64,000 nt of DNA from Syntrophobacterales bacterium (GTDB lineage: Bacteria; Desulfobacterota; Syntrophobacteria; BM002): assembly GCA_050124835.1 (NCBI GenBank), contig JASFEM010000001.1, forward strand, positions 15,280 through 79,279. The letters run 5' to 3'. Within the stretch, counting starts at the first letter, position 1. The number at the start of each line of letters is the position of its first letter. Both the position numbers and the translations under genes were made by a program. Positions 846 through 62,891 of this stretch are shown piece by piece. The notes under the pieces are model-generated. The model made no database searches. It saw nothing but the letters and a program-made list of their open reading frames with translations, and was not told the origin of the DNA.

Positions 846-1040
846 CAGATCCTAGCGGGTTCGAAATCCAAATATCGAATATCGAAATCCCAAACAAATT
901 CAAAATGCAAATTCTCCAATGTTCAAAACAGAATCGTAATTTTGATCACTGAAATCCGTTGTCTTCTCGTTTTGAATTTCGTGCTTTGGTCATTTGGATT
1001 TGTTTCGAATTTCGGATTTCGTGCTTCGAATTTATCATTA
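846..1040. repeat. MITE/REP-like intergenic element. Imperfect inverted-repeat arms made of heptamer words (cgaaatc/atatcga/tttcgaa) flank a core containing aattctccaatgttcaaaaca. A second copy sits at 40316-40490.
   Basis: The 21-mer aattctccaatgttcaaaaca is identical at 910-930 and 40372-40392. The flanking arms are mutually reverse-complementary heptamer arrays. Confidence 0.6.
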
Positions 1041-1094
1041 TGATCACAGTGTCACCGTGTGACCGTGTCACCGCGTCGCCACCGCTGCCTGCTG

Positions 1095-1754
1095 CTAGCT
1101 GCCAGCTGTCCTCTGGCCGTGGTCGCAGTGTTCCACCAATGGACAATCCGGGCACTTTGGCTTCCTCGCTGTGCATATTTTCCGACCATGCTGAATAAGC
1201 TGGTGGGAGAAAACCGTCCACTTTTCTCTTGGAATAAGCTCCATCAGGTCAAACTCAATTTTCACTGGATCTCGCTGCCGGGTTAGACCTATCCGCTGGG
1301 TGATTCGTCCCACATGGGTATCGACGACAATCCCCGGCGTATTGAAAGCACTACCCAGAATGACGTTTGCCGTCTTTCTGCCAATGCCAGGGAGCTTGAC
1401 CAACTCCTCGAGGCTGTTCGGCACCTCACCCTTATATTTCTCCACCAGCGCTAAGCCACAGTTTTTCAAGCTCTTGGCCTTGTTCCTGAAGAACCCTGTG
1501 GGCCGTATATCCTCCTCCAACTCGTTGAGAGGACCATTGGCATAATCTGCCGCGGCTTGATACTTCTTAAAAAGGTTTTTGGTCACCTGATTAACCCGCT
1601 CATCAGTACACTGAGCTGAAAGTACGGTGGCCACGAGAAGTTCCAAAGGATTCTTGAAGTCCAAACTACATTTTGCTTTGGGGTACATCTGGTCCAGAAT
1701 TTCAAGTATTGCCGGTACGTTCTTCATACGGTCTCCCCAATCAAAAGACGGCAC
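1095..1754 (-). CDS. nth: Endonuclease III (DNA glycosylase/AP lyase Nth).
   Basis: 219-aa ORF with the HhH-GPD motif (LPGIGRKTANVIL) and a C-terminal 4Fe-4S Cys cluster (CTARKPKCPDCPLVEHC). The true start may be the internal MKNVP. Confidence 0.9.
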   Translation of the reverse strand: MPSFDWGDRMKNVPAILEILDQMYPKAKCSLDFKNPLELLVATVLSAQCTDERVNQVTKNLFKKYQAAADYANGPLNELEEDIRPTGFFRNKAKSLKNCGLALVEKYKGEVPNSLEELVKLPGIGRKTANVILGSAFNTPGIVVDTHVGRITQRIGLTRQRDPVKIEFDLMELIPREKWTVFSHQLIQHGRKICTARKPKCPDCPLVEHCDHGQRTAGS

Positions 1755-1977
1755 GAGGCACCTTAATCAGCTGGAAGCTGATTAAACGGTCCAATCCCAG
1801 AATGCTGCCTGCTGTCGGCTGCCCTCTGCCAGCTGATTACCACTCTATGCTTCTATAACATAAAAAGTTTTGCATACATACCCAACCACCTGTTTGCTCA
1901 CCCCATTTCACTTGACCCAACATGCCGGTTCAGTTAGCATCACAGCCTCGGAAGGTAATATTTTCGGAGTATAGACC

Positions 1978-2448
1978 GTGAATCAGATTTCTGCCCCTCT
2001 TAAAGGCAAAATCGTGGCAGTTTCCACTAGTAGCCGTAAGGGGAAGAAGAAAACAAACCTCGCCCGTTGTGAGCTCTTGGAAAACAAAGGGCTCGACGGT
2101 GATGCACACGCCGGCGACTGGCATCGCCAGGTAAGCCTCCTGGCCACGGAGAGTATTGCCAAGATTCAAGAGAAAGGTCTTGAAGTCGCTCCCGGGGACT
2201 TTGCCGAAAACATCACCACTACCGGGCTCAAGCTCTGGAAACTTCCTTTAGGCACTCAGATTGCCTTGGGAAAGCAAGCATTATTAGAAGTTACACAGAT
2301 CGGCAAAGAGTGTCATGATCGTTGCGCCATCTACCACCAGGTGGGTGACTGTGTCATGCCAAGGGAGGGAATTTTTGCTCGCGTTCTCCGGGGCGGTACC
2401 ATCAAACCTGGAGATGAAATCAGCATTATACTCCCGGCCGGCTCATAA
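1978..2448 (+). CDS. MOSC domain-containing protein (YiiM-like).
   Basis: 156-aa ORF with a MOSC-like beta-barrel signature (GDxHAG, FAENITT, GKQALLEVTQIGKEC). Confidence 0.7.
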   Translation: MNQISAPLKGKIVAVSTSSRKGKKKTNLARCELLENKGLDGDAHAGDWHRQVSLLATESIAKIQEKGLEVAPGDFAENITTTGLKLWKLPLGTQIALGKQALLEVTQIGKECHDRCAIYHQVGDCVMPREGIFARVLRGGTIKPGDEISIILPAGS

Positions 2449-2572
2449 AATCCTTGACTTCAGGAGCTTATTAACCTAGGAATGACGAACTTGGAATTTT
2501 AGACTATCGCCTGCATAATTTCTCAATTGTCCTTGTCAAGTAACCCCTAATCGCGCGAAACGGAGATCGCTC

Positions 2573-2917
2573 ATGATCCTTAACATTGTTTGTCCTTTCT
2601 GCGAGAGAAAGCACCCCATTCCCATGGATTTCGACGATGTGTATACCTGTGACTGTGGAGCCTGCTACAGGATTTGTAGCAGCAATCTCCTTGAAAATGG
2701 ATTGACCCTCATCGCCAAGGAAGTCTGGGAAACCGACTACCTGCCCCTTCCTGAGGAGGAGGAAATGGGATTCTGCCAGGTGGTGGTTAACCGTGAGTTC
2801 GATCAACTCATTTCACTTAAACAGTCAATGGGTGAACCGTCCGAAATGCGTTTCTGCAAATATGACCCGTCCGCGGAACTTGCCCTAGTCTGGCTCAAGA
2901 GACCATTAGGGGGCTAG
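2573..2917 (+). CDS. Small Cys-rich (zinc-ribbon-like) hypothetical protein of 114 aa that ends in Gly-Gly.
   Basis: ORF with CPFC...CDCGAC motifs and a GGAG-type RBS 9 nt upstream. It sits immediately upstream of the B12-radical-SAM gene. Confidence 0.45.
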   Translation: MILNIVCPFCERKHPIPMDFDDVYTCDCGACYRICSSNLLENGLTLIAKEVWETDYLPLPEEEEMGFCQVVVNREFDQLISLKQSMGEPSEMRFCKYDPSAELALVWLKRPLGG

Positions 2918-2946
2918 GATGGTTTAAAACCAAGTGGAATTCAGTC

Positions 2947-60643: not shown

Positions 60644-60670
60644 TTAGCACTCATCATTCTTGAGTGCTAA
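60644..60670 (+). promoter_or_regulatory. CIRCE operator (HrcA-binding inverted repeat) upstream of groES.
   Basis: TTAGCACTC-N9-GAGTGCTAA matches the consensus exactly. Confidence 0.92.
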
Positions 60671-60761
60671 TAATTTTAGAAGAAAGGCCCGAACCCCATT
60701 GAATCAAAACTGATGCTGCACTCTAAGAGGGTGCCTAATTTTAAAAAAGGAGAGTGATGCT

Positions 60762-61049
60762 ATGAAGCTCAGACCACTGCACGATCGGGTTATCGTCAAA
60801 CGGATTGAGGAAGAGGAAAAGACCTCGGGAGGTATCATTATTCCCGATACAGCCAAGGAGAAGCCCCAGCAAGGCAAGGTCATTGCCATCGGCAAAGGAA
60901 AGATCCTTGAAAATGGGAAGGTTAGTCCGCTGACCGTAAAAAAGGGGGATCGAATCCTTTTCGGAAAATATGCGGGTACCGACATCAAGATTGATGGAGA
61001 AGAACATCTTATCATGCGTGAGGACGATATTCTTGCTGTGATTAAATAG
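60762..61049 (+). CDS. groES: Co-chaperonin GroES.
   Basis: 95-aa Hsp10 with a mobile-loop motif. Confidence 0.95.
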
Positions 61050-61091
61050 TCAGCAAGCACTAGTCCTCAGCAATCAGGAGGGAATAGTCCA

Positions 61092-62741
61092 ATGGCTGCA
61101 AAAGAAATCAAATACTATAGCGAGGCCAGGGAGAAAACCATGAAAGGTTTGGACACCCTGGCCAATGCGGTGAAGGTAACCCTTGGGCCCAAGGGCCGCA
61201 ATGTGGTTTTAGAGAAATCATGGGGTTCCCCCACCATCACCAAAGACGGGGTGACCGTGGCGAAAGAGATCGAGTTGGAGGACAAATTCGAGAACATGGG
61301 CGCCCAGATGGTCAAGGAAGTGGCAAGCAAGACATCTGATGTTGCAGGCGACGGCACCACTACAGCGACCATTTTGGCCCAGTCGATCTATCGTGAAGGC
61401 TCCAAGCTGGTAGCAGCTGGCCACAACCCCATGGCCCTCAAACGGGGTATTGACAAGGCGGTTGCGGTTGCAGTGGCAGAGCTCGAGAAGTTGAGCAAGC
61501 CCACCAAGGACCAGACGGAAATCGCCCAGGTTGGCAGAATCAGCGCCAACAATGATGAGACCATAGGCAATATCATTGCCGAGGCCATGAACAAAGTGGG
61601 CAAAGAAGGTGTGATCACCGTGGAGGAGGCCAAGGCCATGGAGACCACCCTGGATGTGGTTGAAGGCATGCAGTTTGACCGCGGTTACATCTCGCCCTAC
61701 TTTGTCACTGATGCCGAGCGCATGGAGGTGGTGCTGGAGGAGCCCTACTTGCTGATCCACGAAAAGAAAATCAGCAACATGCAAGACCTGCTTCCCATTC
61801 TCGAGCAGATTGCCAAGATGGGCCGGCCGCTTTTGATCATTGCCGAGGATGTAGAGGGTGAGGCTTTGGCCACCCTGGTGGTTAACAAGCTGCGTGGCAC
61901 CTTGAAGATTTGCGCGGTGAAGGCACCGGGATTTGGTGATCGGCGCAAGGCCATGCTGGAAGATATAGCCATTCTTTCCGGTGGTCAGGTAATTTCCGAG
62001 GACTTGGGCATCAAGTTAGAGAATGTGACTGTCAACGATCTGGGTACGGCCAAGACGGTGCGGGTTGACAAGGATAACACCACCATCGTTGACGGCGGTG
62101 GCACCCGGAATGCCCTCGAGGGTCGGGTGAAGCAGATCCGCGCCCAGGTTGAGGAGACCACTTCTGATTGGGACCGGGAGAAGCTGCAAGAACGGTTGGC
62201 CAAGCTGGTGGGTGGTGTGGCTGTGATCAACGTTGGTGCAGCCACCGAGACTGAGATGAAGGAGAGAAAGGCGCGGGTTGAGGATGCTTTGAACGCGACC
62301 CGGGCTGCGGTTGAAGAGGGTATCGTACCCGGTGGTGGCGTGGCCCTGCTCCGCTGCATTCCAGCTCTCGAAAAGCTTAAGCTAGAAGGTGAGGAACAAC
62401 TTGGAGTCAATGTGTTGAGGCGGACCCTAGAGGAGCCGGCACGGCAGATTGCCAATAATGCCGGCCATGAGGGTTCGGTGGTCGTTGAGCGTCTCAAGAA
62501 CGAGAAAGGCGCCTTTGGTTTCAATGCGGAGACCGAGAAATACGAGGACCTCACCAAGGCTGGAGTGATCGATCCCACAAAGGTGGTGCGTTTTGCCCTG
62601 CAGAATGCAGCCAGTGTGGCATCATTGCTCCTGACTACCGAGGCCACAGTCGTTGAAAAGCCCGAAGAGAAGGAGCAGATGCCGGCAATGCCGCCTGGTG
62701 GAGGAATGGGTGGTGACATGGGCGGCATGGGCATGTATTAA
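61092..62741 (+). CDS. groEL: Chaperonin GroEL.
   Basis: 549-aa Hsp60 with a C-terminal GGM repeat tail. Confidence 0.97.
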
Positions 62742-62780
62742 ACTGCCGATATCGCTGAAGCAAATAGTATGAATATATAA

Positions 62781-62810
62781 ACCCACGCCCTTTGGGGTGT
62801 GGGTTTTTTT
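62781..62810 (+). terminator. Rho-independent terminator of groESL.
   Basis: ACCCACGCC-ctttgg-GGTGTGGGT followed by TTTTTTTG. Confidence 0.85.
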
Positions 62811-62891
62811 GTGAGTTCGACAACTATAGTAGAATTCCTCAATCTTCCATTTCCAAATCTGCAATCTAAAATCTACAATCTGAAATATCTT

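Follow-up and report, generated by a model that had tools for sequence, protein, structure and literature searches.

The 64,000-nucleotide stretch of DNA analysed here (the window; positions 15,280 to 79,279 of contig JASFEM010000001.1, assembly GCA_050124835.1, from a Syntrophobacterales bacterium) carries short tandem arrays of degenerate heptanucleotides in many of its intergenic gaps, often as inverted pairs. We believe these arrays are probably modular, dispersed and palindromically arranged repeats found throughout the clade, built on a block of four heptamers and reshaped by slippage, nesting and replacement, with at least one copy under constraint. They are repeats of a known but unexplained kind that has already been recorded in Geobacter and in cyanobacteria; the set found in this lineage is new. 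Positions below are those of the window, and loci from other assemblies carry L numbers.

An earlier note on this DNA, made from the letters alone, had claimed that heptamer arrays fill the spaces between genes, and counting bears this out. Tandem Repeats Finder (TRF) reports 28 period-7 arrays of 2.3-6.4 copies in the window, along with 8 period-14 rows and 1 period-21 row over the same arrays, whereas 30 dinucleotide-preserving shuffles, made for coding and non-coding segments separately, give a mean of 0.97. The gene map is based on open reading frames (ORFs), and the ORF-free DNA, about 14% of the window, holds 25 of the 28. The enrichment that the note expected from a period-7 autocorrelation is there as well. 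Non-coding DNA matches itself at lag 7 with a frequency of 0.315 against 0.256 +/- 0.004 after shuffling (z = 13.7), with echoes at lag 14 (z = 9.3) and lag 21 (z = 7.3); the same scan of the coding DNA of the window finds no lag-7 signal, just the usual period 3. All the loci that the note named contain the repeats it described when they are read back. Those at 1040-1085 and 8725-8830 are indeed 8-mers, and the ggaattN repeat at 59280-59440 is present, though very degenerate and uncalled by TRF. To say that almost every gap holds repeats is an overstatement: they are common, but a period-7, -14 or -21 array is called in 19 of the 42 gaps of at least 40 bp (about 45%), with a few more visible by eye. 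Likewise, inverted arms around a core describe a large subset of the arrays but not all of them. A reverse-complement partner (no more than 3 mismatches in 14 nt) lies within 350 bp of 12 of the 28 (about 43%), against 3-6 in control orientations. About ten gaps fold into long imperfect hairpins, with fold z from about -2.6 to -5.3; over the 42 gaps fold z averages -1.6 and falls below -2 in 16. Array density in the window is about 4.4 per 10 kb, and arrays with their enclosed spacers come to an estimated 2.8 kb, roughly 30% of the non-coding DNA, by a hand sum of the listed parts.

The arrays are modules of about four units rather than microsatellites of open-ended length. In the clade the copy number has a single peak at about 4 (median 3.9) and never exceeds 7, whereas in controls it decays from 2. 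The units are also related to each other. With rotation and either strand allowed, 212 pairs of array consensus units differ by at most one mismatch; composition-matched random heptamers give 68 +/- 8. The unit families NAGGCAC/TAGCGCA, AATCYNN, CAGCTGG, GTCMGTT and AAATCCG recur in relatives at other loci, and the window alone holds ten or more unit types. Modules of different families are juxtaposed and nested in a mosaic-like way.

The window contains two members of the AAATCCG family, at 862-1036 and at 40325-40470; they are 150-175 nt long and share an identical core of 18-22 nt. The 18-mer core is found in 99 metagenome contigs; about 65 of these have the full element, and the same arms stand in at least 54 distinct flanks. 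From the left, the element consists of a four-heptamer arm, the hinge AAACAAAT, a further short block, the core TTCTCCAATGTTCAAAAC and a variable loop of about 25 nt; the right side continues with GTTTTGGTCATTTGG..., the hinge ATTTGTTT and another four-heptamer arm. Of the parsed arms, 20 of 21 on the left and 18 of 21 on the right measure exactly 28 nt. The unit can be written A-A-n-n-n-C-G (position by position A, A, A/G/T, T/C/A, C/T/A, C, G/T), with A1, A2 and C6 at 95% or more. The termini are sharp (AAATYCGAA...TTCGRATTT). Direct repeats of at least 3 nt flank 0 of 62 copies, so there is no target-site duplication. Where both neighbours are defined, 34 of 37 copies lie between co-directional genes, and their orientation relative to transcription is mixed (21 vs 13).

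The arms are no more complementary within a copy (0.655) than between copies (0.692 +/- 0.015), RNAalifold finds no covariation and a weak consensus of -7.9 kcal/mol, and the sense and antisense strands fold equally well. This argues that the phase of the motif is conserved and not the pairing. The conserved feature is thus a phased motif with inverted symmetry, as would be expected of ends or sites recognised by a protein rather than of a selected RNA hairpin. On the same grounds we rejected a structured RNA. No known RNA family in Rfam matches either: at the gathering threshold the window yields only a tRNA, and 820-1120 yields nothing credible at E <=10. Phage carriage was also rejected, since all three viral-contig matches of the core lack arms and fall by chance within coding sequence. 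No plasmid matches the element, and its sequence strings have no match in the literature text.

Two further features were seen in copies of this family. A hairpin micro-element of about 45 nt (AAACYGGGGMCCCGCC...GGGTGGGGAGTCCGGAGGACCAATTT; AAACYGGGG...GGACCAATTT) sits inside the right arm in L004 (9660-9710) and also in L107, L110, L119, L134 and L184, flanked by an apparent 5-nt duplication, TTTCG in L004 and TTTGA in L107. A recurrent module ending in ...CTCACCACCCTGAGCCAAGTCGAAGGGC, sometimes doubled, adjoins the left of the element where the outer heptamers are expected (L108, L136, L172, L173, L176, L183), which suggests mosaic joining of different repeat families.

The repeats are not confined to the window; confinement to it would have undercut the earlier note. 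Nor is the process specific to this genome, as one of the two readings in the note had it. The clade and many metagenome contigs from sediment have it in common, and Geobacter metallireducens has one of the unit families as well. In the 10 kb past the window end, read from the same population (L091), there are 7 further period-7 arrays including one inverted pair. L001-L005 have 3.2-7.0 period-7 arrays per 10 kb, L007 and L008, with polynucleotide phosphorylase (PNPase) identity of 58-61%, have about 2.3, and L006 and L009 have none. In the 71 unrelated control loci the density is 0.65 arrays per 10 kb, and period 7 does not stand out as a peak. Across 554 kb of metagenome contigs, picked by the core of the AAATCCG element, period 7 is by far the commonest, with 221 arrays; period 9 is next with 84. 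Composite modules also recur at non-orthologous gaps: 5831-5886 matches 10195-10250, and the CACAAAG hairpin and the GC-rich hairpin at 24182-24261 behave in the same way. We count composites with unique cores alone for dispersal because arrays of the same unit match irrespective of descent.

The sole control locus with a strong period-7 signal, L054 (10988-11203), belongs to a Kapaibacterium metagenome-assembled genome (MAG) and holds 216 nt of about 33 AAGTGAG copies at a contig end. It is one long array, quite different in kind from the window modules.

The earlier note had also called for related genomes to be compared at orthologous gaps, and doing so reveals the same element, altered array lengths or a different hairpin. 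In comparison with L001, identity is about 96% in coding sequence, 0.80-0.93 at 4-fold degenerate sites, 0.85-0.98 in repeat-free gaps and 0.19-0.73 in heptamer gaps. Indels within arrays are 7, 7 and 21 nt against L001 and 14, 14 and 28 nt against L002, and the orthologous copy in L116 is without about 35 nt of the right arm. Three assemblies of one population show no indels in 20 kb, and strains that are 99.7% identical are one GCATGGG unit (7 nt) apart over 9.9 kb. With no population-level indels in that 20 kb and a single 7-nt strain difference, the arrays do not behave as phase-variation-type repeats.

Relative to L001, three gaps (42300-42487, 47444-47490 and 40280-40491) have been replaced outright by repeat hairpins of other families. 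At 40280-40491 the AAATCCG element is common to the window and the more distant L002, L004, L005 and L138; in L001 this gap holds a GGAATTA/AATTCCT hairpin and in L003 a CACAAAG/CTTTGTG one. The gap downstream of pnp (42300-42480) has an entirely different sequence in L001-L004, and in L005 it is about 30 nt with no hairpin. The 47448-47484 site holds repeat hairpins of 160-300 nt in L001 and L003 (period 9) and in L004 and L005 (heptamers). The gap at 835-1094 is 82-88% identical to its L126 and L099 orthologues, including the locus-specific loop, and the 4-fold sites of its flanking genes are at 37-48%. This copy is under constraint, or else homogenised by other means.

Elements occupy every gap of the liv-type cluster (4937-13130) and several gaps of the nusA-to-pnp region. 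Arrays end 1-10 nt from a Shine-Dalgarno sequence or overlap a start codon at 11826-11851, 19304-19333, 25851-25890, 26670-26696 and 7911-7934. The individual loci are given in Table 1.

Table 1. Repeat loci and annotated genes of the window. Copy numbers follow the multiplication sign x; z is the fold z-score.
Position	Strand	Feature	Remarks
862-1036	.	AAATCCG-family copy 1: left arm AAATCCA AATATCG AATATCG AAATCCC, hinge AAACAAAT, core TTCTCCAATGTTCAAAAC (912-929), locus-specific loop, right arm TTTCGAA TTTCGGA TTTCGTG CTTCGAA TTT	nhmmer E = 2e-35; z = -2.6
1044-1077	+	Octamer array TCACCGTG x4.2	TRF; one position off Geobacter class 2 consensus TCTCCGTS
1084-1108	+	GCTGCCA x3.6 (CAGCTGG/GCAGCTG unit family)	TRF
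in 2573-4806		RiPP-type radical-SAM C-methyltransferase (ribosomally synthesised and post-translationally modified peptide; S-adenosylmethionine)	TIGR03975, E = 4e-113
4840-4870	+	ACTAGGC x4.4	radical-SAM gene/livH gap; also in the orthologous L099 gap, there enclosed by additional outer arrays
4937-13130		liv-type ABC transporter cluster and two AMP-ligase genes	livH-livM-livG-livF-ligase-ligase-binding-protein
5825-5886	+	Composite (ATTGCGG)x3.4 + TAAAGAAAGG + (CAAGGCA)x3.7	second copy 10195-10250, 93% over 56 nt; in a different gap in L099
5897-5992	.	MTYCTGA-type inverted pair, 4-5 heptamers per arm: left (reverse complement of 5897-5930) CTCCTGG CTCCTGC CTACTGA CTCCTGA; right (5955-5992) ATTCTGG ATTCTGT CTCCCGG ATTCTGA CTCCTCG	livH/livM gap
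7827-7934	.	GCAGCTR x5 (7827-7867), spacer GATCAAATGGTCTAATCTAAGAATGCTG, short complementary stretch, GCGCTAT x3.4 (7911-7934)	GCGCTAT array overlaps the livF start codon; a similar spacer lies between CAGCTGG arrays in L003
8729-8809	.	Octamer inverted pair: GACGCGGT x3.9 and complement, 29-nt spacer	z = -5.3
10195-10323	+	GGATTGC/CAAGGCA composite copy 2 (10195-10250), CTATGCC x3.9 (10271-10297), CTACTGA x2.9 (10304-10323)	
11662-11851	.	Inverted arms ATTTATC.../...GATAAAT, core ~120 nt	z = -3.7; right arm stops 7 nt before GGAGG of the next gene
13618-13697	.	CACAAAG/CTTTGTG hairpin	seen by eye, uncalled by TRF; family also in L003, L134, L153, L120, L149
19243-19333	.	Inverted arms GATTTTA x3.3 + AATCTGA x4.3	right arm 1 nt before AGGAGG of the gene at 19346
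25759-25890	.	Hairpin of GCAAGGC-type arm (25759-25788) and GAGCCTT-type arm (25811-25848), then GACCAAT x5.6 (25851-25890)	z = -4.2; GACCAAT array extends into the lplA/B start codon
26670-26696	+	ACGGACT x3.9	3 nt before AGGAGG of gcvH
40325-40470	.	AAATCCG-family copy 2 (core 40374-40391)	nhmmer E = 5e-38; dUTPase/MBL-fold gene gap
40996-41040	+	GATTGCA x6.4	occupies the entire 49-nt gap; 3 units (21 nt) more than L001
42300-42480	.	Nested palindrome downstream of pnp: outer arms GTCMGTT / AACKGAC, inner arms GCGCAGA/GCATAGA vs GCCTTRY around a 22-nt core	
47448-47484	.	Short TCGATCC/AGGATCG array	occupies a 47-nt gap
47835-47940	.	AATCTNN arms, inverted	two separate 7-nt indels vs L001
56054-56084	+	ATTGCAG x4.4	directly at/after the stop of the gene ending 56060
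57425-57630	.	GCAGCTG-type arms (57425-57465, 57596-57630), core ~130 nt	z = -2.9
58794-58990	.	ACTAAGC/ACTAGGC arm and complement TAGTGCC x4.9, core ~135 nt	z = -4.6
59278-59430	.	Degenerate GGAATTN / AATTCCN arms	uncalled by TRF; unit family is the one replacing the AAATCCG element in L001
62855-62886	+	AAATCTA x4.6	convergent groEL/mlaA gap
within window		PhsA-like molybdopterin oxidoreductase, ferredoxin subunit, GltD-like subunit	
within window		Two-component and sigma-54 regulators	
within window		lpd, lplA/B, gcvH, msrAB, PEP-synthase-like gene	gcvH ATG at 26713
within window		rimP-nusA-infB-rbfA-truB-rpsO-pnp cluster	infB = 47976-50621
within window		tRNA-Gly, groES/groEL, mlaA	

The closest precedent is G. 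metallireducens, a deltaproteobacterial host in which tandem hepta- and octanucleotides of several families form inverted pairs in intergenic DNA, as they do here. Its genome holds paired sites of classes 1-3 and four-heptamer elements called Gmet_H4, with 16-49 copies per family in several families; the sites are intergenic, have 4-5 tandem units of 7-9 nt and mostly form opposite-strand pairs at a variable spacing of about 70-110 bp (PMC2700814). Aklujkar et al. 2009 annotated them, without tests, as putative binding sites of global regulators, namely integration host factor (IHF) or HU (PMC2700814). The class 3 units (MTYCTGA: ATTCTGA, CTCCTGA, ATTCTGG) are the units found at 5897-5992 and are close to those at 10304-10323, by eye against the published arm alignment; the likeness is one of unit sequence. 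The 5897-5992 locus resembles class 3 in layout too, being intergenic with about 5 tandem MTYCTGA heptamers and opposite-strand arms (5903-5925 and 5967-5989) 41 nt apart. Compared with Geobacter, the present host is an uncultured lineage known from MAGs, its arrays are far denser, its unit families are more numerous and the arrangements are nested and mosaic. The Geobacter sites have only been catalogued, whereas for the present repeats genome comparison gives evidence of 7-nt indels, in-place replacement and constraint.

Short tandemly repeated repetitive (STRR) heptanucleotides were reportedly described in cyanobacteria by Mazel et al. in 1990, and we take the TGACCAA array of the window to be the complement of STRR2, TTGGTCA. 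Heptameric intergenic repeats occur in Nostoc and Xanthomonas, with Nostoc arrays of up to 26 units (PMC4692102). The resemblance to all of these lies in over-represented intergenic tandem heptamers, several units per genome, occasional inverted pairs and variation between close relatives. Unlike the STRR sequences, the arrays here are in another phylum and short, at about 4 units, and their units are not G-rich, so the idea of a G-quadruplex does not apply. The TAACTGA direct repeats of marine Beggiatoaceae are intergenic, have 2-6 copies and often stand just upstream of start codons (MacGregor 2015, PMC4679880). They are found in phylogenetically scattered lineages, are mixed with other heptamers in some genomes, and form inverted pairs in 1 of 170 cases (PMC4679880). 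The Beggiatoaceae have one dominant unit and related heptamers are rare, whereas here there are many units and frequent inverted pairs. Among the bacteria with a recorded intergenic over-representation of heptanucleotides are cyanobacteria, Xanthomonas and Burkholderia, and the suggested cause is polymerase slippage (PMC4679880, PMC4692102).

In function, the nearest analogues are MITEs (miniature inverted-repeat transposable elements) and the repetitive extragenic palindromic (REP) sequences with their bacterial interspersed mosaic element (BIME) and hairpin-forming doublet (REPIN) arrangements. Like REP, BIME and REPIN sequences, the repeats here are extragenic and multi-copy, form hairpin-capable inverted doublets and mosaics, lie within operons, have no target-site duplication and are suspected of mobilisation in trans (PMC3116915). 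The earlier note had likened the arrays to MITE or REP elements, and neither label holds. A REP unit is a short palindrome, whereas each arm here is a direct tandem array of four heptamers, though the inverted doublet is present. MITE-like traits are found in the AAATCCG family (under 300 bp, no ORF, terminal inverted repeats, multiple copies), but it lacks the target-site duplication, and the loci examined yielded no parent insertion sequence. The SDR (small dispersed repeats) of Nostoc punctiforme, reportedly described by Elhai et al. in 2008 (cited in PMC3116915), share with MITEs and with our elements a length of 150-200 bp, the lack of an ORF, terminal inverted repeats and many copies; the nested hairpins of about 45 nt with their apparent 5-nt duplication resemble the very small mobile repeats reported from Nostoc.

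We propose that the module is a set of about four phased degenerate heptamers (about 28 nt) with three or four positions fixed per unit, and that two modules usually stand in inverted orientation with a spacer of 20-150 nt between them, which makes a 100-200-bp imperfect palindrome. Such elements may be mobilised in trans, now or formerly, by an enzyme that recognises the phased heptamers of both arms. The lack of target-site duplication points away from a classical DDE transposase; the route might instead be a single-strand or hairpin one of the HUH type, as in REP-associated tyrosine transposases (RAYT), or a recombinational one. Steps of 7 nt could come from replication slippage or unequal exchange. 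The location of elements in transcription units, often abutting a ribosome-binding site, suggests that they would act on transcripts or on DNA-bound proteins, by analogy with REP and BIME, and the copy at 835-1094, at least, may be under host-level selection. Mobile or palindromic elements and slippage had been offered in the earlier note as alternatives; there is evidence for both, acting together.

It is important to realize what weighs against this proposal. No clean empty site was found for the AAATCCG element, the orthologous gaps holding either it or another heptamer hairpin, and transposition itself is not demonstrated without such an empty-versus-filled pair. Several elements stand at orthologous positions across genomes with saturated synonymous sites, so many copies must be old residents and not recent insertions. 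Bare arrays of one unit, which match with or without shared descent, are weak evidence of dispersal. No parent or autonomous element, that is, an arm pair enclosing an ORF, is found among 97 element hits in the loci examined. No mobilising gene is seen in the window, whose genes are ordinary chromosomal ones; there is no transposase or integrase among them, and no RAYT gene in these 64 kb. The sample also covers about 2% of one genome together with fragmentary contigs, and the metagenome loci were picked by the core of a single family, AAATCCG.

One could argue that the arrays are plain microsatellites, grown by local slippage from arbitrary seeds as a property of replication or repair in this lineage, with no mobility and no function. 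We find this improbable. It would account for within-array indels in multiples of 7 nt and for the single-unit strain polymorphism, and heptanucleotides are the most over-represented long simple repeats in many bacteria, for which slippage has been proposed (cited in PMC4679880, PMC4692102). However, the copy number, unimodal at about 4 with none above 7, is unlike the decaying controls, the units come from few related families that are common to synonymous-saturated genomes, inverted pairing exceeds the control orientations, and composites with unique cores recur at unrelated loci. The absence of any indel in 20 kb among the three same-population assemblies also means that the arrays are not hypermutable. 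Even less probable, in our opinion, are structured RNA features selected for their hairpin, such as intercistronic stabilisers, partial terminators or processing sites, like the REP sequences of E. coli operons. The long imperfect hairpins (z -2.6 to -5.3, with 16 of 42 gaps below -2) are what this predicts, as is the position of nearly all copies between co-directional genes inside operon-like clusters, and the pnp-downstream gap, at least 180 nt in the window and L001-L004, holds a different hairpin in each lineage, which would fit selection acting on structure and not on sequence. But the RNAalifold consensus is weak and has no covariation support, arm complementarity is not kept within copies, the two strands fold with equal stability, about half of the arrays are without an inverted partner and Rfam offers no match.

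The repeats might instead be operator-like sites, phased 7-8-bp motifs bound cooperatively, with inverted pairs serving as platforms and dispersal being secondary. The candidates would be a ribbon-helix-helix repressor on contiguous heptads or nucleoid-associated IHF/HU, the proposal made for G. metallireducens. Runs of 7-bp heptads are bound by the omega repressor of pSM19035, and tandem 8-bp met boxes by MetJ. The AAATCCG family agrees with this in its fixed positions every 7 nt, its four-unit number, its lack of covariation and of strand asymmetry in folding, and its arms that conserve motif phase without preferential complementarity within a copy; the strong conservation of the 835-1094 gap and the arrays abutting ribosome-binding sites agree with it too, and the Geobacter counterparts are annotated as putative global-regulator sites (PMC2700814). 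We nevertheless consider it unlikely. Ten or more unit families would each require their own protein and no candidate protein has been identified, the elements stand in either orientation to transcription, their neighbouring genes have no common theme, and the swapping of a family at the same gap between 96%-identical genomes is hard to fit with a regulon. A more ambitious version of the main reading, to which we give little credence, would have the four-by-7-nt arms recognised by a machinery of their own, dedicated to moving or maintaining tiny elements without target-site duplication, a class common to many sediment Desulfobacterota and Geobacter and mechanistically related to the cyanobacterial and Beggiatoaceae heptamers, with some copies (835-1094) recruited as regulatory sites. 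If true, it would explain why repeats in scattered bacterial lineages favour a length of 7 nt.

Cyanobacteria were known to have heptanucleotide repeats by 1990, and such repeats were later found in Xanthomonas, Burkholderia, Beggiatoaceae and Geobacter. This lineage is an unusually dense and well-sampled case, with many close and distant assemblies, fixed four-unit modules and a sharp-ended family at dozens of loci. Rapid replacement and strong constraint within one genome set make the question approachable by experiment and computation: what recognises the phased heptamers, whether the elements are mobile and what they do to operon expression. On the practical side, repeats of this sort in the MAGs of this group break assemblies made from short reads and mislead the calling of start codons and intergenic features.

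The host belongs to an uncultured deltaproteobacterial lineage of sediments, and the window has a G+C content of 50.5% and genes all of ordinary chromosomal type. Its PNPase shares 98% identity with the one encoded in CP070735.1 (3.22 Mb, complete; "MAG: Deltaproteobacteria bacterium isolate bin40") and 79-89% with those of five more deltaproteobacterial MAGs (L002-L006). Several NCBI MAGs and JGI, ENA and Logan assemblies contain parts of the window nearly unchanged, at nucleotide identities that range with the contig from 95.8% to about 99.98%; this population is present in the JGI samples 3300034990, 3300035140, 3300035151, 3300037297 and 3300027917. The identical sequence in these independent assemblies rules out an assembly artefact. 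A cyanobacterial origin was also considered and is ruled out by the near absence of the cyanobacterial palindrome HIP1 (only 2 occurrences in 64 kb), the anaerobe-type genes and the closest genomes, which are deltaproteobacterial MAGs.

Four gene blocks of the window are missing from the collinear region of the 96%-identical L001: a PhsA-like oxidoreductase cluster (13131-19321), a histidine kinase and sigma-54 activator (20453-24301), a pair of an OmpR-type regulator and a histidine kinase (27110-28996), and an 8.9-kb block with the PEP-synthase-like gene (30621-39493). All the junctions fall in intergenic gaps, and L002, L003 and L004 have yet other junctions. The infB gene varies in length in frame, with a 42-nt deletion in L084 (867 aa vs 881 aa) and indels of 24 nt and 9 nt in L001, the former a GATAACAAGAAA-type repeat near the 3' end. 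Within 2573-4806, a 114-aa ORF without a Pfam match lies directly upstream of the radical-SAM C-methyltransferase gene and could be a precursor-peptide or partner gene.

Three other hairpins or inverted repeats were seen in the window. The inverted repeat AATCCCCCTTTAAAAAAGGGGG / CCCCCTTTTCTAAAGGGGGGTT at 20465-20537 has a right half that matches a non-orthologous L099 site at 97% over 34 nt, with another match in L102. The GC-rich hairpin at 24182-24261 (CCCCGCCCGCCTCGCCTTGCCCGCCCGG...) has halves of 30+30 nt that are 90% complementary (fold z = -6.4); a 95% identical copy lies in the unrelated contig L170 (5650-5711), and related GC-rich hairpins are inserted into the AAATCCG elements of L116/L181 and L002. 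Just past the stop of the gene at 31393-33168, the G/A-rich hairpin at 33185-33225 (GGGAAGGGGAAGGAGC...; 16 bp, near-perfect, fold z = -6.9) is followed on the + strand by a run of A and not a run of T.

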